A stretch of DNA of 64,000 nucleotides, taken from NCBI GenBank assembly GCA_964652615.1, contig CAZZAT010000001.1:8070-72069 (forward strand). The letters run 5' to 3'. Both the position numbers and the translations under genes were made by a program. Shown here in pieces: positions 6,251 through 58,775 of the stretch. Positions within the stretch are counted from its first letter, which is position 1; the number at the start of each line of letters is the position of its first letter. The DNA is from an uncultured Candidatus Saccharibacteria bacterium (GTDB taxonomy: Bacteria > Patescibacteriota > Minisyncoccia > Phycocordibacterales > Phycocordibacteraceae). The notes below the pieces were generated by a model. That model worked only from the letters and a program-made list of their open reading frames with translations. It ran no database searches and was not told where the DNA came from.

Positions 6251-8989
6251 TTAGGAGAGGTAGCGTTCGCGTATTTCTGCCTCAACGGTCTTACGATCCC
6301 TGCCATAGGTGAGGTAGGAAAGCTCGCGAAGATCGTTTACCTGCTCTTGGTTTCCCTTTGGAAGATCTACCGTGCGGATATTGAAGGGCTTTTGCGGCAC
6401 GCCTTCAGCCAGAATGCGCACATACGCATTGCGATTCTCGATATTCACAAAATCAAGCGCTTTGAATGCAGGCGCAAACTGCTTCTCGAAGAATTCGCCG
6501 TCTTCCTCGCCTACACGAAACACTGCCATGGAACCGACGTTGCCGAATACTGCATCGCGTATCTTTTCATCTATCTGCTTCAAGAACTGGTGTGCAATCG
6601 TAAGGGACAGTTTGTATTTACGTGCTTCAGAGAGAATGCCTGGAATGGAATCGGTGGTGATGTTTTGGAACTCATCGATATAGAGGTAGAAGGGCGCAAA
6701 GTTTCCGCGCGGATCATCGGCTCTCGAGAGCGCTGCCATGAAAATCTTGCCTACCATGATAAGACCGAGAAGGTTTGCGTTTCTCTCGCCCAGGCGGCCC
6801 TTGGAGAGATTCACTAAGAGAATCTTCCGGTTATCCATGACGTCGCGGAAGTTAAAGGAGGAATACTGCTGCCCTACGATAGGGCGCATGAAGTCGTTTG
6901 CCGTGAAGTCATCGAACTTGTTCGTGATATAGGGCACGATGTTTTCCAAAGATGCTTCGCCTCCCGCCTGCGTTGCAATCTTTTCCCAGAATTGATTCAC
7001 CACAAGATTATTGCTTCGTGAGAGCTTCATATTGCGAAACGCAGAGTCTGAAAGTACGCGTCCAATATCAAGCATGGTTGAGCCAGAGGCAGGATCTTCC
7101 ATGACGAGAAGCGTTGCGTTGCGGAAGTACTGCTCGAAGGCAGGACCCATGCTTTCAGGCACATCGCCATAGAGTCTGCGGAAAATAGCGAGAAGCTCGT
7201 TCACGATGAACGTCTTTTGTTCAGGACGGTTTTCATCGTACTCAAGCAGGTTTAAACCAAAAGGACGCGAGAGCTCTGCGGGGTCAAAGTAAATGACATC
7301 CTCATAGCGCTCGGGCGGCACCAGAGAGAGCACATCGATAATGTCAGAGCCGTGCGGGTCGATGAAGCACACACCCTCGCCGTTTTTCATATCCTGCTCA
7401 ATCAAGGTCTTCATGAATCCGGTCTTTCCAGTTCCCGTCTGCCCTATCACATACAGGTGCCGCAACCTATCAGCAGGCGATAGGCGCACCGCAGCTTCCT
7501 GCCCGCGAAATGCGTTTCTACCGAGTTGAAGACCCTCTCGCGGAAGTGAGAGCGGGGCTGCCGCTGCGGTAAAACGGGATTGCTTTAGGTGCGGCGAAGA
7601 TACGATACCTTTAGGCGGATAGTGATAGAGGCCCGTAAGCTCTTTCAAGGAAAGTGGCATGCGCGCTTCGTGCGAGAAGAGGCGGTAAGTGAGGTTGTGG
7701 TAAAAGCGCTTTGAGTCTCCTTTCTTGATGCGCTTAAAGCCAACGCGGTTTCCTTTTGTGTTTTCGTACTGATTAAAGGCAGCTTCAAGTTCCCCGATAA
7801 TAGCAGAAGCTCTTCCGGGAGCTGCTGACGAAGCAACAAGGCGGATGTTGGTTTCAACAACCGGAGAAGCCATCTTCTTCTCAACGCCTTCTATTGCCGT
7901 CTGGTCAGGCCCGTAGCTTGATGTCTTCGTATCACCCTTCAATATTGAGCGCGTCTCGTACGCAAAATCAGAGAATAGGTCGTGTGAGATTCTAAACGCT
8001 TCACGCTTTGAGACTCCTTTGCGCAGTTCTTTCAACATTCTGCGGTACGTATTCACATACTTATCCTTTTGCGGCTTGAAGATGATTTGCACGGCAGCAC
8101 CCTCGTCCTCAGGCGCAATCTTTGCAAAAGCATTCAAGAGCGCATTCAAGGGGTCGTATTCGAAGTCTTGGTAGTCCTTCAAGGGCAGCGGATGCGCGCT
8201 CTCAAGCTTTGCAAGGGAGCCTTCATTTTCTCCGTCTTGCACAAAGATGTTGTAGTCGTTTGGAGAGACTTCCATGACCGCATGTGGAAACACGGCGAGC
8301 ACTTGTTTCTCAAAGAGATCTCTGCGGGAGTTTGGTACAGCCGCATAGAAACGAAGCTCTGGTGTATCGACAGGAACGGCAAGCTCAAGCGCAAAGTACG
8401 GCGGTTCTCCGCTGTACGCATCTTCAACAGCAAGCATGCCGCTATAAAACTGCTCCATGGGAGCAACTAATTCTCGAAACGCGCGGCGTATACCTCCCTC
8501 TTCCTCGCTTGCTTTCTCGGGGAGCGCTACTTGATACAACGTCATATGAAGCGACTTCCACTCGGGAGCATTTTCAGCAAGACCTTTGAGTGTCCTTCCG
8601 GTAAGGAGGTAGGCAACAAGATAGCGATGGAAATCGTCTTCTAGGTGCGGGCTCTTTAATTTTTCAAGAACAGAGAATGCGTTATGAATGCCCCGAGCCT
8701 CCATAATGAGGCGAAGCTCTTCCATCGTCTCATCATCGCTTTCAGGATCAAGGTTAAGCGCAAGCTCTCTCGCCTCTGTTTCAGGTATCTGATAGTCAGG
8801 ATGGAGCAATTGACCAGCTGGCGTCTTCACATGCTTCGCAAGGCGCTCGCGTGCAGCTGCTTCAGGAGAAACCGGACGCCGCATGCGTTCAAGTTCGCGC
8901 TCTTTCGCTTCAATTTGTGCGCGCAAATGTGCGAGCTCCGCTTCTGGGGAATCGATAGGCGCTACAGGCCCCTCATACTGCATTTCCAT
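6251..8989 (-). CDS. Large P-loop ATPase (912 aa): VirD4/TraG-like C-terminal half, N-terminal ~450 aa without recognisable homology
   Basis: Walker A VIGQTGTGKTGF; CFIDPHGSD (HerA/VirB4/VirD4-type); Walker B FYLYIDEFQN (DEF as in TraG/VirD4); downstream LSLTIAHQFLKQ (AxQ...Q as in coupling proteins). The N-terminal half matches nothing I recognise. Confidence 0.55.
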   Translation of the reverse strand: MEMQYEGPVAPIDSPEAELAHLRAQIEAKERELERMRRPVSPEAAARERLAKHVKTPAGQLLHPDYQIPETEARELALNLDPESDDETMEELRLIMEARGIHNAFSVLEKLKSPHLEDDFHRYLVAYLLTGRTLKGLAENAPEWKSLHMTLYQVALPEKASEEEGGIRRAFRELVAPMEQFYSGMLAVEDAYSGEPPYFALELAVPVDTPELRFYAAVPNSRRDLFEKQVLAVFPHAVMEVSPNDYNIFVQDGENEGSLAKLESAHPLPLKDYQDFEYDPLNALLNAFAKIAPEDEGAAVQIIFKPQKDKYVNTYRRMLKELRKGVSKREAFRISHDLFSDFAYETRSILKGDTKTSSYGPDQTAIEGVEKKMASPVVETNIRLVASSAAPGRASAIIGELEAAFNQYENTKGNRVGFKRIKKGDSKRFYHNLTYRLFSHEARMPLSLKELTGLYHYPPKGIVSSPHLKQSRFTAAAAPLSLPREGLQLGRNAFRGQEAAVRLSPADRLRHLYVIGQTGTGKTGFMKTLIEQDMKNGEGVCFIDPHGSDIIDVLSLVPPERYEDVIYFDPAELSRPFGLNLLEYDENRPEQKTFIVNELLAIFRRLYGDVPESMGPAFEQYFRNATLLVMEDPASGSTMLDIGRVLSDSAFRNMKLSRSNNLVVNQFWEKIATQAGGEASLENIVPYITNKFDDFTANDFMRPIVGQQYSSFNFRDVMDNRKILLVNLSKGRLGERNANLLGLIMVGKIFMAALSRADDPRGNFAPFYLYIDEFQNITTDSIPGILSEARKYKLSLTIAHQFLKQIDEKIRDAVFGNVGSMAVFRVGEEDGEFFEKQFAPAFKALDFVNIENRNAYVRILAEGVPQKPFNIRTVDLPKGNQEQVNDLRELSYLTYGRDRKTVEAEIRERYLS

Positions 8990-16319: not shown

Positions 16320-17225
16320 CTATGAATCAAGACCGCACACCTCCCTAAGAGCCTCTCTATCCTCCTGCGAAAGCGAAAGCTCTTCCCCTGCGTTAAAGGA
16401 ATACATGAGCGAATCAGGATTCTCTACATGGCCGATACCAAGCGCGTGGCCAAACTCATGGGAGAGCACTCGCTCTAGATCCGTAGTTTTAGAGAACTCA
16501 TACACGCTGATGCGCTTCCCCGATGCATCCTCTTGGTAGTCGCCTTGGTCAAAAGCATCTCCCGCATGCTCGTTATAGCGATCCACTTTTGCGTTCAGGC
16601 GCTTTCCAAACGCGTTTAGCGCATCAACAGCTTCATTGAGCTTCTGCGCAAGCGCATTAATCTCTGCAGCATCGTTGTTTATCTCCTCCTGCTCCTCTTC
16701 AAGCTCACGTCCCTCCCTTTGAAGGCGTTCATACTCTCCCGGAGGAGCACCTCCTTCGCTGTTGTATTTTTGCACTTCGGCTTCATACGCTCTCGCACGT
16801 CTTTCAAAAGCAGCTGCCTTTCGCTCATAGATTCTCTGGGCGAGGTGGTATGCGTCTGCAAGCGTCTCAAGCTCTGTCTTCTTTGCGTCATAGTCTGCTT
16901 GCTCGGAGTCTATCGCTTCGCCAAGCTCATTGGTCTGTTGCTCTTCGCTATACACTAAGGAGACGCGTATGCCTCCCTCTGAAGCAAATACAAACAAATC
17001 ACGTCCTGCAGCTTCCTCCCACAGCTTCTCTGCACGAAGGAGTGAAGCCTGAAGGGAAGCTCTCGACACGCCAAAGCGCTCATCAATGGCGTCAATCGAA
17101 TACGTAAGTGGCTTCTCGCATGCGGGCGTGAAATAGGAGACGGCATGCGGATATACGAGATACCCTGCTGTGCCTATAAGCACGAGCGCAACAAGAAGCT
17201 GGATTCCTTTTAGAAACGCATTCAT
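16320..17225 (-). CDS. Membrane-anchored metzincin-type zinc metalloprotease with long coiled-coil region
   Basis: HEFGHALGIGH...SLMY matches HExxHxxGxxH plus a Met-turn. N-terminal TM; the central ~150 aa are E/A/R-rich coiled coil. Confidence 0.6.
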   Translation of the reverse strand: MNAFLKGIQLLVALVLIGTAGYLVYPHAVSYFTPACEKPLTYSIDAIDERFGVSRASLQASLLRAEKLWEEAAGRDLFVFASEGGIRVSLVYSEEQQTNELGEAIDSEQADYDAKKTELETLADAYHLAQRIYERKAAAFERRARAYEAEVQKYNSEGGAPPGEYERLQREGRELEEEQEEINNDAAEINALAQKLNEAVDALNAFGKRLNAKVDRYNEHAGDAFDQGDYQEDASGKRISVYEFSKTTDLERVLSHEFGHALGIGHVENPDSLMYSFNAGEELSLSQEDREALREVCGLDS

Positions 17226-30042: not shown

Positions 30043-30128
30043 GCCGCGGTGATGAAATTGGTAGACATAGGGGTCTCAAAATCCCCTGCTGGAAACGGCG
30101 TGCGGGTTCGAGTCCCGCCTGCGGCACC
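30043..30128 (+). tRNA. tRNA-Leu (anticodon CAA), class II with long variable arm
   Basis: Acceptor GCCGCGG/CUGCGGC, D-arm with AAUUGGUAGAC, anticodon loop CUCAAAA (CAA), variable arm GCUGGAAACGGCGU, T-arm GCGGG-UUCGAGU-CCCGC, discriminator A, and CC encoded. Confidence 0.8.
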
Positions 30129-30129
30129 T

Positions 30130-30705
30130 ATTGAATCTGAAAGAGCCGAGAGGCTTGCGTATATAGTTGGAGTTGCTCTCGGCGATGGAAATCTTTCTTG
30201 TCCAAACGGCAGGGCCACGCGTCTGCGAATTACTTGTGATACAAAATATCCAAGACTTGGAAGGGAGATTAGAAAATCACTATTGTTCCTTCTACCTCGC
30301 AACAAAGTCTCTATCGTTTTAAGAAACGGATCCAATTGTTTTGATATCAGCGTATATTCGAATCAATTGAATCTATGGATGCCATGGCGAGTGGGTCTTG
30401 GATCAAAAATAAAGCAAAAAGCACGCGTCCCTGCATGGGTATGGACCAGCCCGTTATATATGAAAGCGTGCTTAAAGGGCCTTATACAAACAGATGGTTG
30501 TATATATGTAGACCGCGGGTATCCAATGATTAACTTCACAAATCACTGTCGTGAATTGGCGGAAGATGTAAGAGACATGTTACTTCAACTCAATTTTAGA
30601 GCTTCATTCATGCAGTTTCGCGTATCTACTGGCATACGCTATACCGTCAAGATTGCTCGAGAGACAGCTAGATTCAAACGTGAGTTGCGTCTATACAAGG
30701 CATAA
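30130..30705 (+). CDS. Double-motif LAGLIDADG homing endonuclease
   Basis: Two LAGLIDADG motifs, LAYIVGVALGDGNL and LKGLIQTDGCIYV, about 100 aa apart. The frame is continuous with the 3' end of tRNA-Leu, and the only in-frame ATG (30049) lies inside the tRNA D-arm. Confidence 0.7.
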   Translation: MESERAERLAYIVGVALGDGNLSCPNGRATRLRITCDTKYPRLGREIRKSLLFLLPRNKVSIVLRNGSNCFDISVYSNQLNLWMPWRVGLGSKIKQKARVPAWVWTSPLYMKACLKGLIQTDGCIYVDRGYPMINFTNHCRELAEDVRDMLLQLNFRASFMQFRVSTGIRYTVKIARETARFKRELRLYKA

Positions 30706-31512: not shown

Positions 31513-32451
31513 TTATTCGTCCTTCACGATGGGAACCATCGCGTCATGGTACATGAGCGCAGCTGCTTCCACATCCGCAAGCCATGTTTCAGGATTCTTG
31601 GACGCTTCTGCAATGCCGCGGCCCACATTCACAACCCACGGCGCCTTATGATGGGCGCGCATGGCTTTCACGACGAGCTCGAGATCGCCGCCTTGTGCGC
31701 CCACGCCAGGAATGAGGAAAGGTGCTTTTGACGCCATGAAGGAAAGGTTCTCGAGCATTGTAGTGTTCGTTGCTCCGACGACGAGGCCGTGGCCCATGAG
31801 TTGAGCTTTGGAACCAACATAGTCGGAAAGCAATGTGTCGTTTCCAACCAGAAGCGATTGAAGCTCGTTAGCGCCTTCATTTGAAGTCCGCCCGAGCACA
31901 AAGCAGTCGATGTCGAGCTTGTTGAATTCTCTCGTCACGTCCGCGATACCCATGTACGGATTAACTGTCACGATATCTGCGCCGAGTTTCTTCGCAAATT
32001 CTGCAGAGCGCTTCGAAGTATTGCCGATGTCGCCGTACTTCCGGTCGAGGATAATAACCGCATCCGGAAAGTCGGAACGCGCGCGTTCAATGAGCGCCTT
32101 CAAGGAAACGAGAAGTTCGAAGTTGTATTCCAGGGTACACCAGAATTCGAAATTAAACTTGAACGCCGCAGCGTAGCGGCCAGTGCGGCGAATGACGCTG
32201 CCCATATACGGAATCGCATAGTCGGCGTCGCTTATGAGACGGTCGGAGAGACCGTAGCCTTGCGAGCCGTTGATGACGGTTCTTGCATGCGAGAAGTCGG
32301 GATCAAGCCCGACGCACAGATGCCTGCCTGCCTTATTCGCGGCCGCAAGCTTTTCAAACCCTTTTCCCATGTGCTGTTCTCCTAAAAGGACTACCGTGTC
32401 CGCCCCCGATACTACGGCAAAGCTCTCAATTGTGCTAGCCTTGATGCCCAT
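31513..32451 (-). CDS. pyrF: Orotidine 5'-phosphate decarboxylase (long type 2)
   Basis: LCVGLDPD and ILDRKYGDIGNT (the DxKxxDIxNT motif). Start at MGIKAST (32451); the track ORF adds 103 aa overlapping miaA. Confidence 0.7.
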   Translation of the reverse strand: MGIKASTIESFAVVSGADTVVLLGEQHMGKGFEKLAAANKAGRHLCVGLDPDFSHARTVINGSQGYGLSDRLISDADYAIPYMGSVIRRTGRYAAAFKFNFEFWCTLEYNFELLVSLKALIERARSDFPDAVIILDRKYGDIGNTSKRSAEFAKKLGADIVTVNPYMGIADVTREFNKLDIDCFVLGRTSNEGANELQSLLVGNDTLLSDYVGSKAQLMGHGLVVGATNTTMLENLSFMASKAPFLIPGVGAQGGDLELVVKAMRAHHKAPWVVNVGRGIAEASKNPETWLADVEAAALMYHDAMVPIVKDE

Positions 32452-33277
32452 GAAGGAGAAGCTCAAAATCCTCTGTATCGCAGGACCCACCGCCTCCGGG
32501 AAGACGGCGCGTGCGGTTTTACGCGCAAAGGAACGTAACGGAGAAATTATCTCTGTTGATTCAAGGCAAGTGTACGAGATGCTTGATATCGGCAGCGAAA
32601 AGATATCTCCCGAAGAGATGCAAGGAGTCCCCCACCACCTCATTGGTTTTAAGGACCCCAGAGAGGCATATAGCGCAGGCGACTTCGTGCAGGACGCTTC
32701 ACGGCTCATCAAGGAGATATCCTCACGCGGCAAGCTCCCTATCCTTGCCGGGGGCACGCATTTCTATTTCGATGCTCTCTTGCACGGCCTCCCCCCAGAA
32801 TCTCCGGACGATCCTGTACTTCGAAAAGAATTTGAGAAGCTCTCAACCGAAGAATTGTTTGCCCGTATCAAAGCAAAAGATCCACGACGTGCAGAGACGC
32901 TTGATCCGCACAACCGCCGCCGCCTCATACGCGCCCTCGAGCTCGTATACACGCATGGTAGTGTCCCGCTTCGATCTCCGAAGGAGGAATACGACGTCAC
33001 ATGGGAAATACTCCTTCCAGAACGGGAGGAACTTCGACAGCGCATCAAGGAGCGCGAAGCATTGAAGTTCCCTCGCGGGCTCATAGACGAAGTGCGCCGC
33101 GTGCGTGCGTACGTAGGAGACGAGCGCCTTAATGAGCTCGGCCTTGAGTATCGAATTGTGGGCGAATACTTACGAGGAGAACGAAGTGAAGAATCGATGC
33201 TTCCTGCGCTTAATGCAAAACTCTTTCAGTACGCACGAAGACAGGAGGCGTGGCTACGGAAGTTGCAAAAAGGTTAG
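32450..33277 (+). CDS. miaA: tRNA dimethylallyltransferase
   Basis: ILCIAGPTASGKT P-loop and DSRQVY motif. Start at MKEKLKIL (32450) or MPMKEK (32444), divergently overlapping the pyrF start. Confidence 0.8.
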   Translation: MKEKLKILCIAGPTASGKTARAVLRAKERNGEIISVDSRQVYEMLDIGSEKISPEEMQGVPHHLIGFKDPREAYSAGDFVQDASRLIKEISSRGKLPILAGGTHFYFDALLHGLPPESPDDPVLRKEFEKLSTEELFARIKAKDPRRAETLDPHNRRRLIRALELVYTHGSVPLRSPKEEYDVTWEILLPEREELRQRIKEREALKFPRGLIDEVRRVRAYVGDERLNELGLEYRIVGEYLRGERSEESMLPALNAKLFQYARRQEAWLRKLQKG

Positions 33278-34452
33278 CGGTAAATTGAGAAGTGATTTCC
33301 TGTTATATGGGAATACGCAGGTTCAGAACTGCAATGAGCCTCAACACCTAACGCCTTTACAGCATCTCTAAGGTTGCAGTCTGTAGTTTCAAAAACCGCA
33401 CGCATGCCAGAGAAAGAGTTCCCGAAAGCTGCAATTTGTGCAGCAGTAGGATTTGCCGTCCGTATAGCAACATCGACACAAGTACCGTTTCCATGACACG
33501 CATTGCTATGGTTCACTGTTGGCGGCCACATTTCAGTAATCTGCCAACTCATGTTTGTCTCTACGTCTTGAAGCTCTGCAAGCAAATCTCTATGAATCAT
33601 GCAGTCTGATACTGGAGTAGCTAGAACAGGACTGGTCTGCGGATCACATCCGCCGTTAACATTGCATCCCGCTCCGCTATTGCATGATGTTCCGGAACCC
33701 TTGCGCGGCACGCCAGTAACAACCGTACAATTAGCGCATGTGATTCCCTGTCCTGTAGCTTGTCCGGAAGGGACTCTACAGCGAGTTGGAAGAATTCTGC
33801 TTTCAGTCGTATTGTCTTCGTAGCGTATAGAAAGAGCCACACCTTCTGTTGCTCCTATGGGAGTACCTATTTCAGTCACGGTTCCGCGCGTATAGGTATT
33901 CTCTCCAAGCTTCATACACTCAACTGCATCACCTACATCAAAGTCACCAGTGCCAGTGCCCGTTCCGGTCCCTGTACCTGTCCCCGTACCTACAGGCGCT
34001 TCAACTGGTGCCTGCTCCTCTATACACTTCTTACCACTATTTTCATTCAAAATAGAGTTCCAAGGACCAAAGCTTCCCGCATCCTCGTTATACAGAGCCT
34101 TCATCACGAAATCAACGATAAGCCATGCGGAAAGCGCAATCACGAACCCTATGACCGCATTTGTGAGTATTGCACGCGCCTGTTCCTTCCCTTTCGGATT
34201 GATGGAGCTCGCCATGAAAAGTGCACCAGCGTATGCCGCTACCAAAACAAAGAAGATGGTAGCGAGAGAGATGCCAAGATTGATGATGTTCTGAACCGTC
34301 TGAAGAACGCATCCCCAGTCAGGGGCAGATTCTCGACACACACATTCTCCGCTGATTATAGGACCGAAGAAATTCGCGGTAGCGGCATATGCTGCTAAAG
34401 GGACGAATGTAAGAAAACCTGCAAGGACAGAAAGGAGGAGTGCTCGACGCAT
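33274..34452 (-). CDS. Fusion protein: N-terminal pilin-like two-TM domain, (Thr-Gly)7 linker, C-terminal Cys-rich domain
   Basis: A signal peptide is followed by a Cys pair and then IINLGISLATIFFVLVAAYAGALFMASSINPKGKEQARAILTNAVIGFVIALSAWLIVDF, which resembles the pilin-like segments at 44593-46597. Then comes TGTGTGTGTGTGTG, and then a ~220 aa domain with about 16 Cys. Confidence 0.5.
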   Translation of the reverse strand: MRRALLLSVLAGFLTFVPLAAYAATANFFGPIISGECVCRESAPDWGCVLQTVQNIINLGISLATIFFVLVAAYAGALFMASSINPKGKEQARAILTNAVIGFVIALSAWLIVDFVMKALYNEDAGSFGPWNSILNENSGKKCIEEQAPVEAPVGTGTGTGTGTGTGTGDFDVGDAVECMKLGENTYTRGTVTEIGTPIGATEGVALSIRYEDNTTESRILPTRCRVPSGQATGQGITCANCTVVTGVPRKGSGTSCNSGAGCNVNGGCDPQTSPVLATPVSDCMIHRDLLAELQDVETNMSWQITEMWPPTVNHSNACHGNGTCVDVAIRTANPTAAQIAAFGNSFSGMRAVFETTDCNLRDAVKALGVEAHCSSEPAYSHITGNHFSIYR

Positions 34453-34618: not shown

Positions 34619-34659
34619 CTTTAAAAGTTAAGGCTCCGGATTTCTCCGGAGCCTTGGCT

Positions 34660-35502
34660 TTAGTTTTTAGAGCGGAGTTTCTGAAGCGCAGATTCGTGTT
34701 CGGCAATTTGCCTGCTCCGTTCCTGCTCTTCCTTTCTCTTCTCCAGCTCACGATATGCAGCGCGCGCCAAGATTAAAGCTTGCGCCGATCCGTGCCCTTT
34801 CAGCAATCCATGCTCTACTGAGCCGAACTGATCGACCAAGAGAACTTCGAGTTTGCACAAAGCCTCTGGGTCAAAACTGTCCCAAGCACTAGTGCATTCC
34901 CAGCGGTCGATAGCGAAAGAACCTTTGTTGGGTTCGGGAATCAGCGTCATCACTTTGTCGTGATGATGCAGGACCTCAAGCGCGTTTTGTCTTCCGAAGA
35001 TTGGCACGTACGCGTACGGGCCATCGTCATCAGACTGAACATATACCTTCAACGGCCCCTGATGACCCCAAGCATATTTGCACAGCGATTGAAGAAAGTC
35101 TCGGATTGGTTCCGCCGGATAGCCGGAGCCCCACAACACGTTCCCGGGAGTACGGACAAACTTAATGACCGCACGCACCGTCTCTGTGTCGTAGGTGTTC
35201 TTCAGATGACTGACATCAATCCTCTTAAAGAAGTGGTCGGCGAGGACCCGTACTGCCTTATGCCGCACCTGGTCTTGAGGTTCGTAGGTCTGCACCCATC
35301 CTTCTGCAAGTCCAAGGAGGAAGCGTATTCTTTCACCGCTTTCTTTCTTGAGCTCTTTTACGTCCTCAGTCGGGAGCGTAGCAGAGAAGACGTGGTGTAG
35401 AAGGCCAAGCGCCGTCGGAATGTCCCGAACAGCAACCCAACGCTTCTTCCAAGTCTGCCAGGAAATCGCGGGAGCAAGCTCACGCTGTTTCTCGGTAGTC
35501 AT
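34660..35502 (-). CDS. Hypothetical protein (281 aa), first gene of the tRNA-Trp-adjacent cassette
   Basis: Start at MTTEKQRE (35502). Upstream on its own strand lie the 26 bp repeat and TTGACC-16nt-TATATA. No known motif. Confidence 0.45.
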   Translation of the reverse strand: MTTEKQRELAPAISWQTWKKRWVAVRDIPTALGLLHHVFSATLPTEDVKELKKESGERIRFLLGLAEGWVQTYEPQDQVRHKAVRVLADHFFKRIDVSHLKNTYDTETVRAVIKFVRTPGNVLWGSGYPAEPIRDFLQSLCKYAWGHQGPLKVYVQSDDDGPYAYVPIFGRQNALEVLHHHDKVMTLIPEPNKGSFAIDRWECTSAWDSFDPEALCKLEVLLVDQFGSVEHGLLKGHGSAQALILARAAYRELEKRKEEQERSRQIAEHESALQKLRSKN

Positions 35503-43755: not shown

Positions 43756-43828
43756 GGCCCAGTGGCGAAGTAGTAACGCAGGGGACTGCAAATCCTCGAT
43801 TGCGCGGGTGCGATTCCCGCCTGGGCCT
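43756..43828 (+). tRNA. tRNA-Cys (anticodon GCA)
   Basis: Acceptor GGCCCAG/CUGGGCC, anticodon loop CUGCAAA, T-arm GCGGG-UGCGAUU-CCCGC. Confidence 0.75.
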
Positions 43829-43854
43829 CATATTGTGTGGTATCCTCGGCACAC

Positions 43855-43943
43855 GCCGAGGTGGTGAAACTGGTAGCCACGGAGGTCTTAAACACCTCTG
43901 GCCTTTAAAAGCCTTGTGGGTTCGATTCCCACCCTCGGCACCA
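43855..43943 (+). tRNA. tRNA-Leu (anticodon UAA), class II, CCA encoded
   Basis: Acceptor GCCGAGG/CCUCGGC, anticodon loop CUUAAAC, long variable arm, T-arm GUGGG-UUCGAUU-CCCAC, and ACCA followed by a T-run. Confidence 0.8.
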
Positions 43944-43975
43944 TTTTTCGGATTCTTCTAGAGGTGCAGTAAGCA

Positions 43976-44242
43976 CTACACGCGCTCGAGCTTCTTGATG
44001 CGACGTTCGTGAGCGATAAGTATCTCAGAGTCCTTGCTCACAGCCTCTGCAACTGCATCTAACGTCTCTGCTACGTCTTCAACTCTATTCTCCAAGCCAC
44101 TCAACCGACGCTCAATACTCGAAAGCCGCACGTCAACATTATCCACGCGATCCTTCATTACCAGAAGGATACTCATCATTTTATTCTGGCTGTTCGCCAC
44201 CTCTCGCAGCGTTGGCTCTTTCTTTGGGTTCTTCGAAGCCAT
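43976..44242 (-). CDS. Small coiled-coil protein (88 aa) inside the tRNA cluster
   Basis: MASKNPKKEPTLREV...LSSIERRLSGLENRVEDVAETLDAVAEAV... shows heptad repeats. Confidence 0.35.
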   Translation of the reverse strand: MASKNPKKEPTLREVANSQNKMMSILLVMKDRVDNVDVRLSSIERRLSGLENRVEDVAETLDAVAEAVSKDSEILIAHERRIKKLERV

Positions 44243-44352
44243 AGTTGGGTAAGTGTAGCATACTCCGCTTTTCGCCCGCTTAGCGGGTGCGGCGTTGTAG
44301 TTATTCACAAAAAGAAATACCCGAACATGCGTTTGGGTATTTCTGTTTCGTG

Positions 44353-44425
44353 TCCGCCTGGTAGGGCTCGAACCTACGACCATCTCCTTAAGAGGGAGTT
44401 GCTCTACCAACTGAGCTACAGGCGG
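44353..44425 (-). tRNA. tRNA-Lys (anticodon CUU), unusual C1-G72
   Basis: Reverse complement CCGCCUG-UA-GCUC-AGUUGGUA-GAGC-A-ACUCC-CUCUUAA-GGAGA-UGGUC-GUAGG-UUCGAGC-CCUAC-CAGGCGG-A. There is an A-A mismatch at 27-43. Terminator hairpin plus U-run follows. Confidence 0.55.
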
Positions 44426-44469
44426 GTGGTCTTTGCAGATTAGCGTGCTCGGTATACTCTTGCAAGATT

Positions 44470-44554
44470 GCCGGGGTGGCGAAATTGGTAGACGCACCTG
44501 CCTTAGGAGCAGGCCCCGCAAGGGATGGAGGTTCGAGTCCTCTCCCCGGCACCA
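44470..44554 (+). tRNA. tRNA-Leu (anticodon UAG), class II, CCA encoded
   Basis: Acceptor GCCGGGG/CCCCGGC, anticodon loop CUUAGGA, T-arm GGAGG-UUCGAGU-CCUCU, ACCA. Confidence 0.8.
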
Positions 44555-44592: not shown

Positions 44593-44850
44593 TTAGGGCA
44601 ACAGCGAATCTGACGTTGCCCCGATAAGTCCCACAATGCCGTTTGCAGCGAAAATAATAGCAAGTCCTACGATACCCCAAATCATGTGGCGGCGCCCGTC
44701 TTCTTTCTCTTTTCCGCCGGTAGCTCCTGCACGTATGTATTCAACAACTCCCCACAGAAAGAGAAGGAAGGCTGCAAGCGCAACAAGCGTCATCAAGGGC
44801 TCTATGAGCTGGCGTACAATTCTTCCTACAAACGATTCAAGTGCTTCCAT
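44593..44850 (-). CDS. Small two-TM pilin-like protein, paralog 1 (85 aa)
   Basis: Shares the pattern hydrophobic helix - G..EEKKKEA/GGKEKEDGRR - second helix (I.G..G.....S.WG.V..L) with the five neighbours. Confidence 0.5.
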   Translation of the reverse strand: MEALESFVGRIVRQLIEPLMTLVALAAFLLFLWGVVEYIRAGATGGKEKEDGRRHMIWGIVGLAIIFAANGIVGLIGATSDSLLP

Positions 44851-44868
44851 GAAGCTAGTATACCTCCC

Positions 44869-45093
44869 CTAGCCTCGCGCAAGCGAAAGTAAGATGTGGA
44901 GGATGAAGGTTAGCGCAAGCACGATAAGGCCATAGAGCATCACGGTCTTCCCATGATCTGCAAGTTCTTCGTCGTACCCTCCTGCAAGAAGGAAGAGGCC
45001 TGCACCCCACGCAAAGGAAGCGATGGACGCAGTAAACAGGATAGGTATGAAAAGCTGGAAGAAAAAATAGGCTGCAATGCTGCCAATAGTCAT
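44869..45093 (-). CDS. Small two-TM pilin-like protein, paralog 2 (74 aa)
   Basis: Same architecture. Confidence 0.45.
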   Translation of the reverse strand: MTIGSIAAYFFFQLFIPILFTASIASFAWGAGLFLLAGGYDEELADHGKTVMLYGLIVLALTFILHILLSLARG

Positions 45094-45165
45094 GTGTAGA
45101 TTCTAGCATCCTTACGTAAAGGAAAAACCGCCGATCTGTATCGGCGGTTTTTCGTACGAGCACCT

Positions 45166-45513
45166 CTAGCGAGGCCCAGGGGCTGGCGGTAGTGGAGGAA
45201 CGTTTGAGTTCAAGTTGAAGGTTCCAACGAGAATGTTCACAAGGCCCCATACCGATACCATCACGAAGAAGCCGACAATGCCGTAGAGCATGAGGTGCGT
45301 TGCTTCTTTCTTCTTCTCTTCACCACCAGCAATGAAGTACTGGAAGACACCCCAGATGAACACGAGGAAGGCGATAGCGAAGATAAGCGGCACCAAGACA
45401 CCATTGATGATGTTGGTGATGGTTGCTGCAAGGCTCGTAATATTTGACTGTGCAAGCGCAAGTGCAGGCAGGGCCCAAGCAGCGGCGGCAGCAATCGGTA
45501 TGAGTTTTTTCAT
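45166..45513 (-). CDS. Small two-TM pilin-like protein, paralog 3 (115 aa) with signal peptide and Pro-rich tail
   Basis: Signal peptide with AQS cleavage-like site, ITNIINGVLVPLIFAIAFLVFIWGVFQYF, EEKKKEATHLMLYGIVGFFVMVSVWGLVN, and a PPLPPAPGPR tail. Confidence 0.5.
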   Translation of the reverse strand: MKKLIPIAAAAAWALPALALAQSNITSLAATITNIINGVLVPLIFAIAFLVFIWGVFQYFIAGGEEKKKEATHLMLYGIVGFFVMVSVWGLVNILVGTFNLNSNVPPLPPAPGPR

Positions 45514-45614
45514 TGATGATTATGTAAGGGCCCTTGTAATGGCTATGGATATAGCATAGTGCTTCATTACGGCGCGTCAATGCACATTATGTGCCTGTGT
45601 GGAAAACGTCACGA

Positions 45615-46076
45615 TTAACCGCCGCAGATATATGTTGCCGTATTGCACGGAACGCCGTACTCACATCCAGGAAGGGGTGGTCGACAACTCTCTCCAACTC
45701 GTCCCCTTCTCGTACGGATGTCACCACCTCCTCCTCCATTACCTCCGCCAAAAATATCTCCAAGTATGTCTTCTACTAGATTGCCCCCGCTTGGCGCTCC
45801 AAAGCTTGGTAGCGGCGGCCTTCCCTGTCCTTGGAAACCAAAGGTGCCAACGAGCACGTTCACCATGCCCCATACAGAAATCATGAGAAAGAACCCGATG
45901 ATGCCGTAAATAGCGAATTTGCGTGCTTCTTTGCGTTTGTCATCGCTGTTGCTGTTAAGAATGAATCCTTGGACAATACCCCAGATAAAAACAAGGAACG
46001 CTATGGTAAAGATAAACGGAACGATGACCGAATTAATGAGGTTTAGAAGAAACGCGAAGAAGTCGAGAATGGGCAT
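45615..46076 (-). CDS. Small two-TM pilin-like protein, paralog 4 (153 aa) with Gly-rich linker and Cys-containing tail
   Basis: Core is near-identical to paralog 3; the C-terminus is GGGNGGGGGD...ESCRPPLPGCEYGVPCNTATYICGG. Confidence 0.5.
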   Translation of the reverse strand: MPILDFFAFLLNLINSVIVPFIFTIAFLVFIWGIVQGFILNSNSDDKRKEARKFAIYGIIGFFLMISVWGMVNVLVGTFGFQGQGRPPLPSFGAPSGGNLVEDILGDIFGGGNGGGGGDIRTRRGRVGESCRPPLPGCEYGVPCNTATYICGG

Positions 46077-46079
46077 GGT

Positions 46080-46319
46080 TTAGAAGAATGAGTACATAAG
46101 CAAGCGCACAAGGCCCCATACGGAAAAGATAACGGCGAGCGCGATGATGCCGGAGACGGCAAACGCACGCCCCTCCTTGCGCTTATCCTCGCTATCGCTG
46201 AAGAAGTAGCGCACAATGCCGAAAAGAAAGAACAGGAACGCAAGCGCGTAGAGAAACGGAATAATAACCGCATCCACTATCGGAACAATTCTGCCGTAGA
46301 CAATATCAGCGAAGGTCAT
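46080..46319 (-). CDS. Small two-TM pilin-like protein, paralog 5 (79 aa)
   Basis: Same architecture (SEDKRKEGRAFAVSGIIALAVIFSVWGLV). Confidence 0.45.
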   Translation of the reverse strand: MTFADIVYGRIVPIVDAVIIPFLYALAFLFFLFGIVRYFFSDSEDKRKEGRAFAVSGIIALAVIFSVWGLVRLLMYSFF

Positions 46320-46597
46320 ATAGCTCCTACGGTTGATTCAATAACAACGGCAAGTCCGCTTGCACCAAGAAGAAGCAGACCGCCAATGACTGTCCAAAGT
46401 AGTGCCTCGCGAGCTTTCTTAATCTCTTCAGGCTTCCCTTGCGCTTTCACAAAGAGAAAGCCGACATACACCAAAACGATAGTGAGAAAGATAGTACCGA
46501 GATACACCACCGCATCAAGAAGAAGCAAGAGAAGGTCAGGCAAGGTACACACCTGAAGCGGATTCACGAGGGCCCCTTCTTGTCCGCAGGTATCCAT
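46316..46597 (-). CDS. Small two-TM pilin-like protein, paralog 6 (93 aa)
   Basis: Same architecture (KPEEIKKAREALLWTVIGGLLLLGASGL). Confidence 0.45.
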   Translation of the reverse strand: MDTCGQEGALVNPLQVCTLPDLLLLLLDAVVYLGTIFLTIVLVYVGFLFVKAQGKPEEIKKAREALLWTVIGGLLLLGASGLAVVIESTVGAI

Positions 46598-57939: not shown

Positions 57940-58235
57940 GGGAGCATAGTACCAGAGGATATGTAATGTTGGTCTTTCAAACCAACAGAAATTCCTACGG
58001 TAGCCCCCGGTCTTCCAAGTTCGCGCCAGCGACTAGAACGTTACTAATCGCACCTTGCGTGCATAAAACATGTCACAAGGCTAGGAGGTAGCTTGAAGCC
58101 TAGGGGCTTTCGTAGAGATTTCTGTTTCTCTAAAACCCTTCTGGCTTGAATTATAACCCAACTATCTTCCACAACAAGCTACTTATGTAACTTACCTATT
58201 TGACTCGCAGAAAATCAGGAATACAATACTCCTCA

Positions 58236-58775
58236 ATGAAAGTACTCAAGGAGATTCTTTGGCTCGTTCTCCTCGCAGTACTTGTTGTCGTCCCTATTCG
58301 CATATTCATAGCGCAGCCCTTCGTTGTTGAAGGGCTTTCTATGTACCCAACCTTTGAGGACGGCGACTACCTCATCATTGATGAACTCTCCTATCGCTTT
58401 GAGGAGCCAGTGCGTGGTGATGTTGTTGTCTTCCGCTATCCTGGGAACCCTTCTATCTTCTACATTAAGCGCGTTATCGGCCTTCCAGGAGAAACCGTGC
58501 GTATAGAGCGGGGACAGGTGTCAGTGACGCGCGTGGATGGCACCTCGCTCACACTTGAAGAACCGTATGTTGTTGCTGAAGACGCAACCTATTCTGGCGT
58601 TGCAACACTTGGCGCAGGCCAGTACTTCGTCATGGGCGACAATCGTCCAAAAAGCTCCGACTCGCGCGTCTGGGGCGTGCTTCCAAAACAAGACATTATG
58701 GGTAAAGCATTCTTGCGCCTTCTTCCAGGAGAAGATGCAGGCTTTTCTCCTGGCGCCTACGCACTTCCACAATGA
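58236..58775 (+). CDS. lepB: Signal peptidase I
   Basis: TM anchor, catalytic Ser box EGLSMYPTF, Lys box YIKRVIGLPGE, and the GDNRPKSSDSR box. Confidence 0.8.
   Translation: MKVLKEILWLVLLAVLVVVPIRIFIAQPFVVEGLSMYPTFEDGDYLIIDELSYRFEEPVRGDVVVFRYPGNPSIFYIKRVIGLPGETVRIERGQVSVTRVDGTSLTLEEPYVVAEDATYSGVATLGAGQYFVMGDNRPKSSDSRVWGVLPKQDIMGKAFLRLLPGEDAGFSPGAYALPQ

Follow-up and report, generated by a model that had tools for sequence, protein, structure and literature searches.

A pilin-type anchor joined to a Hedgehog/DD-peptidase-like domain at the clpB–miaA locus of a Candidatus Saccharibacteria bacterium: a candidate surface-tethered wall hydrolase

The locus described here raises the question why a protein that begins like a pilin of a type IV secretion system (T4SS) should continue for about 250 further amino acids (aa), and why its gene should lie among housekeeping genes. 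The gene is an open reading frame (ORF) in a stretch of 64,000 nucleotides (hereafter the window) of an uncultured Candidatus Saccharibacteria bacterium (assembly GCA_964652615.1, contig CAZZAT010000001.1, positions 8,070 to 72,069). Its sequence, relatives and gene neighbourhood suggest a surface-tethered peptidoglycan peptidase with a VirB1-like role in wall opening, a reading that is moderately favoured. The domain identities on which it builds (Table 1) are assigned with good confidence. The ORF (392 aa, minus strand) was found exactly where an earlier note on this DNA had placed it; the note read it as a pilin-like domain followed by a single ~220 aa cysteine-rich domain. The latter region proved to consist of three modules, and its last module carries a conserved zinc-peptidase-type residue set where the note had recognised no enzyme.

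The possibility that two genes had been fused by a frameshift in assembly or annotation was rejected. Three independently assembled Logan contigs (SRR15237817, SRR15237804 and SRR15237806) encode an identical 392-aa protein and a full-length homologue, P0002, is 54% identical to it; the ORF is therefore no frameshift chimera. The same two-part architecture was seen in 51 species genomes and in 131 of 143 scanned proteins with the C-terminal domain, a set made up of 142 cluster representatives and the domain fragment of the window itself. Nothing was found in favour of an artefact, the probability of which is negligible.

All strings quoted in the earlier note (CANCTVV, CNSGAGCNVNGGC, CHGNGTC and CSSEP) are present in the translation. 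The protein contains 16 cysteines, four in the N-terminal part (C37, C39, C48 and C143) and 12 in aa 165–392, so that the figure of about 16 given for the C-terminal domain holds for the whole protein only. The dipeptide repeat reported as (TG)7 exists, its exact form being V-(GT)7-G. It is encoded by imperfect GGN-ACN codons and is, because of this heterogeneity, regarded as a peptide linker; a slippage-prone DNA microsatellite was ruled out.

Judged by its sequence, the N-terminal module is a pilin of the VirB2/TrbC type and a member of PF18895 (T4SS_pilin), which it matches with 30.1 bits against a curated cut-off of 26.6. NCBIfam gave a sub-threshold match to a pilin-like conjugal transfer family. 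In a comparison of the 143-sequence family profile with all PDB sequences, the VirB2 T-pilus of Agrobacterium (8cue) ranked first (E = 0.054). The earlier suggestion of a pilin-family variant is thereby borne out. The module is composed of a Cys motif (C37, C39, C48), a first transmembrane helix (~52–80), a basic loop, a second transmembrane helix (~94–117) and a conserved post-helix segment (AWLIVDFVMK...FGPWNSIL...C143) with near-invariant columns. Kyte-Doolittle hydropathy revealed hydrophobic stretches at aa 3–26, 52–85 and 92–121, with the helices flanking the short basic loop SSINPKGKEQAR, in agreement with the signal peptide, the N-terminal cysteines and the two hydrophobic helices around a charged loop noticed before. 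The signal-peptide-like N-terminus reads MRRALLLSVLAGFLTFVPLAAYA up to the predicted cleavage site, followed by A. A signal peptidase I gene (lepB, 58200–58775) is located within the window.

The window also contains an array of six small pilin genes. Five of these ORFs match PF18895 above the curated cut-off, and a profile of the family's N-termini detected five of them with E-values of 6e-11 to 2e-6 and the sixth with 0.008. The N-terminal similarity to these proteins, described as rather distant by the earlier note, thus survives profile alignment and grows stronger. Loss of this similarity and a frameshift were the two results that the note had named as refuting its proposal; both were looked for and neither was found.

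VirB2/TrbC-like pilin arrays of Patescibacteria have been described (PMC12102498, PMC10633639). Their members share the domain family, the signal peptide and the two-helix hairpin with the 392-aa protein. They are small (~70–150 aa), whereas the 392-aa protein adds an N-terminal Cys motif, the post-helix segment ending in C143 and an extension of ~250 aa that is predicted to be extracytoplasmic, and it is encoded at a housekeeping locus instead of beside virB4. Its N-terminal module is far more conserved between species, with an identity of 45–60% among relatives compared to an average of 25% for array pilins (PMC12102498), which suggests a different constraint. One array pilin (45615–46076, minus strand, 153 aa) has its own linker rich in glycine, with a short tail rich in cysteine (GESCRPPLPGCEYGVPCNTATYICGG), and looks like a miniature of the anchor-linker-cargo design.

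The high conservation of the anchor and the core-genome site between clpB and miaA, not by virB4, would fit an ordinary housekeeping autolysin, with the hairpin as a recycled membrane anchor unrelated to any secretion system and the enzyme serving growth, septum splitting or wall turnover. However, a full-length search yielded 65 relatives, and the anchor is a genuine PF18895 domain in all 66 sequences including the query, as well as in 131 of the 143 carriers of the C-terminal domain. Two properties of the locus described below also speak against an autolysin: the placement of a glycosidase and of a peptidase on the same special type of anchor resembles the VirB1-type hydrolases of T4SS, and the free swapping of enzymes with different bond specificity would be unusual for a division autolysin. 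This explanation is considered rather unlikely.

Conservation within the family is high up to C143 and gone afterwards, and the cargo junction is for this reason placed inside the tether. Among the linkers of 161 pilin fusions, 13 contain runs of three or more GT dipeptides, in combination with various cargo types; the (GT)7 of the window is the longest.

The first module after the tether was modelled by AlphaFold (aa 165–230) with a predicted local distance difference test (pLDDT) score of 85.8 from a 9-sequence alignment. The model forms the five-stranded barrel that characterizes the Tudor/SH3-like fold, and the top Foldseek matches were SAWADEE and Tudor domains (prob 1.0, TM-score 0.6–0.75, E = 6e-3 to 9e-2). 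The barrel is enclosed by C179 and C225, and both residues are invariant wherever the barrel occurs. In relatives, the barrel is found in front of several different cargo types and therefore behaves as a mobile accessory. From its modelled fold it is probably a binding module. For the adjoining neck, the confidence of the AlphaFold model was moderate only. Its cysteines C239 and C242 are invariant, and weak matches to Pfam EGF were obtained in 19 of 143 relatives.

For the C-terminal core, weak independent signals agree on the fold of the Hedgehog N-terminal domain and the DD-peptidases (LAS, M15-like zinc peptidases) as the best match. The core was modelled with a pLDDT of ~90+, and its predicted order of strands and helices corresponds to the Hedgehog/DD-peptidase layout. 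Foldseek against the PDB returned Hedgehog N-domains for all of the top ~20 matches (best E = 0.17, prob 0.51). On the level of PDB sequences, a 24-sequence profile found Indian hedgehog first (E = 0.11), and the 143-sequence profile found 17 Sonic or Indian hedgehog entries (E = 0.25–1) directly after VirB2. HH_signal was the only catalytic-type Pfam family that recurred in the relatives (4 of 143, sub-threshold, best E = 0.071). Against the N-domain of Sonic hedgehog (Shh-N), the family profile gave P ~2e-8 (hmmsearch) and P ~1e-3 (hhalign). The alignments to Hedgehog fell on the same block each time, W-x-V/I-T-E-x-W-P-P-T-x-x-H-S-N-x-C-H-x-x-G-T-C-V-D, and two profiles aligned the string VTEayPPtvnHsn-aCHsnGtCvD of the core to the Hedgehog segment.

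Within the core, H315, C319 and C325 are invariant across the 143 diverged representatives, and E307, H320, G323, D327 and E355 are conserved in at least 90% of them. W309 and H387 are further conserved residues, and a last-strand His is present in every complete family sequence. H315 is taken by us to be the equivalent of Shh H135. The H-x(6)-D zinc motif was identified as H320-GNGTCV-D327. This pair was equated with the zinc pair H141/D148 of Shh (Shh numbering from PMC6027127), and H387 on the last strand with the H183 region. E355 (VFET) was set against the general base E177; in weak alignments it falls within one residue of the Hedgehog YYES.

Several results weigh against this assignment. 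The core belongs to no Pfam or NCBIfam family, and Pfam gave no match to it at E ≤ 10; no significant match to the HH_signal, Peptidase_M15_x or VanY models was obtained. No single match to a LAS or Hedgehog protein reached significance (Foldseek E ≥ 0.17, PDB profiles E = 0.11–0.3), and hhalign against Shh reported a probability of 17–20% only. Furthermore, the LAS arrangement of Hedgehog and bacterial Hh-like DD-peptidases (MEROPS M15A) includes an H-x-H on the last strand (PMC6027127), whereas the core has H387-F-S389. Two further searches were uninformative: the C-terminal region, compared as a single sequence with PDB sequences, had a chance match only (GdmN, E = 0.18), and a viral structure library held nothing significant, the best match being an uncultured-virus 'putative peptidase' (E = 1.1).

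The last-strand motif differs by branch (P0083–P0203): it is H-F-S-x-Y in the branch of the window's protein, S-F-H-V in another and H-[FL]-H in ~10 of 142 sequences. Which histidine of the LAS H-x-H pair was retained apparently depends on the branch.

Compared to the Hedgehog N-domain, the core shares the VTE-W...H-S...H-x2-G-x3-D block, the H-x6-D, a putative E177-type Glu and the predicted beta-alpha order. It differs in the H-F-S, in an insertion of ~30 residues between the Glu strand and the last His strand, in a PP at the place of the Ca-binding acidic residues and in two invariant cysteines that flank the first zinc His. The SNHNSGxAxDI motif of VanY/M15B (PF02557) aligns with the H-x2-G-x3-D block of the core. 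Profile-profile likeness to VanY is, however, confined to this motif (E = 0.07–0.16), and the core contains neither SxYR nor D-x-x-H.

Table 1. Coordinates of the modules of the 392-aa protein and of related features in the window (aa, amino acids; nt, nucleotides).
Feature	Coordinates	Strand	Basis
Whole gene, candidate pilin-anchored peptidase, 392 aa + stop, ATG start	33274..34452	-	Translation
Sec-type signal peptide, aa 1-23, predicted cleavage between AYA and A	34384..34452	-	Hydrophobic stretch aa 3-26; A-x-A read from sequence
VirB2/TrbC-like T4SS pilin module, aa 24-143	34024..34383	-	PF18895, aa 53-116
Low-complexity tether, aa 144-169, with (GT)7 at aa 155-168 (nt 33949-33990)	33946..34023	-	
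Tudor/SH3-like small beta-barrel, aa 170-227	33772..33945	-	AlphaFold model and Foldseek
Cys-rich neck, aa 228-284, with C239-x2-C242 and C257, C263, C269, C284	33601..33771	-	
Hedgehog/DD-peptidase-like (LAS, M15-like) core, aa 285-392	33277..33600	-	Model, profiles, conserved residues
miaA (tRNA isopentenyltransferase), convergent with the ORF, stop codons overlap	32270..33277	+	IPPT Pfam matches
Array of six small VirB2-like pilin genes	44593..46597	-	Domain family shared with the 392-aa ORF
912-aa TraD/VirD4-like (T4SS coupling-protein-type) ATPase	6251..8989	-	Pfam DUF87 and TraG-D_C; weak NCBIfam TraD/VirD4-like

The N-domain of animal Hedgehog acts mainly as a ligand (PMC6027127). Together with the incomplete H-x-H and the presence of a binding-type beta-barrel, this would be consistent with a non-catalytic adhesin or pilus tip, in which the core is a pseudo-enzyme that binds together with the Tudor-like barrel. 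Yet the H-x6-D, the C-terminal His and the putative E177-type Glu and H135-type His are kept across the 143 diverged representatives, and catalytic domains such as VanY are found in the proteins that take the same place in other species. An adhesin is thus very doubtful. The earlier note had left the choice between a tip adhesin and a fused effector; the effector guess came much closer, as indicated by the zinc-peptidase-type residues, the Hedgehog/DD-peptidase matches and the hydrolase cargos, and nothing specific for an adhesin was found.

For the identification of proteins with the Hedgehog-like domain, the C-terminal 168 aa alone were used to query a word index of homologues, with an empty result even though P0001 is 82% identical in this region. 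This is an artefact of the index, and a full HMMER scan was therefore used. The exhaustive scan with the Hedgehog-like region alone yielded 555 clusters at 50% identity. The earlier note had proposed to search for the domain as a stand-alone protein; since 131 of the 143 scanned proteins also carry PF18895, the domain hardly exists alone. A local pilin hidden Markov model matched 132 of 144 newly listed proteins; those without a pilin domain are either fragmentary or, in a few cases, anchored in another way. The two giant repeat proteins P0066 and P0077 were rejected as relatives; they match residues 31–73 of the query only, in 17–20 repeated stretches.

The pilin-type anchor is combined with several types of cargo. 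Among the 65 relatives, ~24 have a Hedgehog-like cargo. VanY was identified by Pfam in 9 of 66 sequences (best E = 1e-15), and one member of this type is named 'D-alanyl-D-alanine carboxypeptidase family protein' in databases. Two further types, 'SISD…CHYGG…HVHV' and 'GGTE.GH…H..G.K.D…HWD', were assigned by motif only. Other cargos on the same anchor are lytic-transglycosylase-like (SLT or SLT_3; SLT above threshold in L004:8470-9465), Peptidase_M15_4 and NlpC/CHAP-like domains, the latter with one weak Pfam CHAP match and otherwise assigned by motif. When the profile of the Hedgehog-like cargo was compared with those of the VanY, 'SISD..CHYGG' and 'GGTE.GH' cargos, the matches were short and at the level of motifs only, and homology among these cargos is therefore not claimed. 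As a guess, PF18895 and PF18896 (SLT_3), which have adjacent accessions, may have been built together.

TSP_3, fn3 and EGF-like domains are accessory modules of the relatives. Thrombospondin type-3 (calcium-binding) repeats were found in the linkers of L010:4297-5487 and P0033, and the L010 cargo looks like a degenerate Hedgehog-like domain that lacks the H-x6-D.

The position of the genes is conserved as well. The order is rbfA-infB, a class-V aminotransferase gene, a ~250-aa gene, clpB, the pilin fusion or fusions and the convergent miaA, and it continues past miaA to parB, relA-spoT, topA, dprA and serS. It is the same in the window and in contigs with different cargos. A scan of one genome per species gave 51 loci, all with labels of Patescibacteria-type metagenome-assembled genomes except for three that are called 'uncultured bacterium' only and one with the label Bacillota. 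The fusion gene is directly adjacent to miaA in 52 of 55 related loci. The usual cassette consists of a pilin-SLT-like fusion, a ~180-aa protein and a pilin-peptidase fusion; this vertically inherited unit is conserved and lies between clpB and miaA.

In every classifiable case, the cargo of the first cassette gene is lytic-transglycosylase-like, with about a dozen of these cargos missed by the motif screen and assigned by eye. The cargo of the second gene varies: across the 55 loci it is Hedgehog-like in 11, VanY in at least 11, of the 'SISD' type in at least 11, of the 'GGTE' type in at least six and NlpC/CHAP-like in at least two. At least five cargo types thus occupy the same orthologous position, that is, a conserved N-terminus is followed by unrelated C-termini as in polymorphic effectors.

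The ~180-aa protein was present in 44 of 55 loci (for example L004:9462-9998, L006:11038-11595 and L007:9457-9996). It begins with a membrane anchor, has SFCPGA.PLP as its C-terminus and matches no Pfam family. It occurs exactly when the SLT fusion is present; single-fusion loci lack both, and one locus (L030) has the SLT fusion and the ~180-aa partner without a peptidase fusion. The protein could be an inhibitor or immunity protein for the transglycosylase, or an assembly partner. The window contains a single fusion, as do a minority of the loci, and clpB is separated from the gene only by unrelated ORFs without Pfam matches and a tRNA-Trp gene.

In the favoured reading, the protein would be exported by the Sec pathway and its signal peptide removed, and the VirB2-like hairpin would insert with both termini outside the cytoplasm, by analogy with VirB2/TrbC pilins. 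With both ends of the hairpin outside, the (GT)7 tether would hold the three disulfide-rich modules outside the membrane. H320, D327 and H387 are putative zinc ligands, and E355 and H315 putative catalytic residues that may cut murein peptide stems or cross-links. The substrate is probably peptidoglycan, because all cargos that can be recognised are wall hydrolases and a glycosidase and a peptidase come together in the cassette. Since this pair mirrors the glycosidase and peptidase of VirB1-like hydrolases, the job is taken to be a local opening of the wall where VirB2-like pilins are handled.

In Gram-positive T4SS, the VirB1-like hydrolases, such as TraG of pIP501 (SLT + CHAP) and PrgK of pCF10 (PMC12102498), unite a glycosidase, a peptidase and a membrane anchor to open the wall locally. 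The cassette supplies the same two activities, whereas it places them on two proteins, each with a pilin-type anchor; its genes lie outside any T4SS operon, the type of peptidase varies and the window holds the peptidase gene only. A recognised VirB1 is missing from most of the Patescibacteria that have VirB2 homologues (PMC12102498), and no description of pilin-hydrolase fusions was found in the same study.

The genomic setting counts against a VirB1-like role. The ORF lies outside any T4SS operon, at a distance of 10 kb from the pilin array and of 24 kb from the TraD-like ATPase gene. A VirB1-type hydrolase would be expected inside a T4SS cluster, and in 52 of 55 loci the gene sits between clpB and miaA. 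In the 64-kb window, tblastn detected neither an SLT fusion nor the ~180-aa partner. In addition, the swapping of cargos between species fits a diversifying effector at least as well as a housekeeping function.

Between the cell's own wall and the wall of the host as the target, the balance is about even, with a lean towards the cell's own wall. The own wall is favoured by the core-genome location, by the membrane tether and by the lack of an immunity gene next to the ORF. In favour of the host wall are an anchor of the pilin type, cargos that are polymorphic, accessory modules for binding and the fact that the T4SS and the pilins are essential for epibiosis; the host wall would be reachable if the pilin module were built into a pilus.

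VirB2-type pilins expose their C-terminus on assembled pili. The protein could be a minor or terminal subunit of a T4SS pilus, the C-terminal enzyme of which digests the host wall at the contact site. Such a pilus-borne anti-host effector would account for a conserved anchor (45–60% identity) with non-homologous cargos at one orthologous locus, as the swapping of cargos would track the chemistry of host walls on the pattern of a polymorphic effector system. The protein itself has a Tudor/SH3-like module of the binding type, and relatives have accessory TSP_3, fn3 and EGF-like modules. The ~180-aa partner may be an immunity-like protein for the transglycosylase, and the pilin array and the T4SS are essential when a saccharibacterium grows as an epibiont (PMC10633639, PMC12857230). 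On the other hand, no immunity-type gene is found directly downstream of the peptidase gene, where the convergent miaA overlaps its stop codon; the gene is a single-copy member of the core genome, syntenic among housekeeping genes in 52 of 55 loci; and a cargo of 250 aa would be sterically awkward on a helical pilus subunit. An anti-host effector is possible but, on balance, unlikely.

Polymorphic toxins share with the family a conserved anchor, here up to C143, a low-complexity junction and unrelated cargos at one locus. In contrast to them, the locus is single-copy and part of the core genome without an immunity gene downstream of the peptidase, and all cargos are wall hydrolases, with no nucleases, deaminases or similar domains.

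Returning to the window, the earlier note had asked for T4SS or type IV pilus assembly ATPases nearby. The TraD/VirD4-like ATPase is the only T4SS-type ATPase in the 64 kb, which contain neither virB4 nor a type IV pilus ATPase. Its gene stands alone between FKBP/tgt and a PIF1-type helicase gene, away from the pilin genes. The remaining window is core chromosome, with uvrB, tgt, serS, topA, relA, parB, clpB, infB, gyrA, ftsA, ftsZ, lepB and others.

A promoter consensus scan revealed no sigma-70-like site upstream of the gene, and a strong terminator-like hairpin with a 17-bp stem follows the tRNA-Trp gene (34624–34661, plus strand). For these reasons, the gene is probably its own transcription unit. 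The hairpin overlaps the end of a 296-aa minus-strand ORF at 34660 and may act both ways.

Other features of the window include an ORF for a LAGLIDADG_3 homing endonuclease (30043–30705, plus strand), which starts at or within tRNA-Leu(CAA) (30043–30128) and for which a product of ~201–218 aa is called in matching contigs. Four tRNA genes (Cys, Leu-UAA, Lys-CUU and Leu-UAG; 43756–44554) adjoin the start of the pilin array. A 301-aa ORF (16320–17225, minus strand) has a matrixin-like Peptidase_M10 domain, which is uncommon for a reduced genome.

The VirB2-like pilin arrays of Patescibacteria, the LAS peptidases and the wall hydrolases of T4SS are already known, and databases hold the pilin-hydrolase architecture implicitly. 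In the searchable literature, no description was found of the pilin-hydrolase fusion family, of a clpB-miaA cassette with a swapped peptidase cargo or of the Hedgehog-like domain family. Replacement of the cargo while the chromosomal position stays fixed is seen here with unusual clarity, and the Hedgehog-like domains would define a bacterial branch of the Hedgehog/DD-peptidase fold that has lacked annotation.

A large part of bacterial diversity belongs to the Patescibacteria. The T4SS and the pilins are essential for epibiosis in Southlakia (PMC10633639, PMC12857230), and in the one genetically tractable species the T4SS genes and VirB2-like pilins cannot be dispensed with on the host. The widespread family of pilin-anchored wall hydrolases is a candidate for the missing VirB1 activity, the Hedgehog-like cargo alone accounting for the 555 clusters. 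A more far-reaching idea, which is regarded as rather improbable, is that the VirB2-like module is the trafficking and presentation domain of an unrecognised polymorphic effector system. Specialised pilin subunits would bring interchangeable wall-degrading enzymes, among them a Hedgehog-like peptidase family that hardly occurs outside this fusion, into or onto the T4SS pilus, which would use them to breach the host wall. If this were true, the essential and unexplained T4SS and pilin arrays of the candidate phyla radiation would gain a concrete mechanism of host access.

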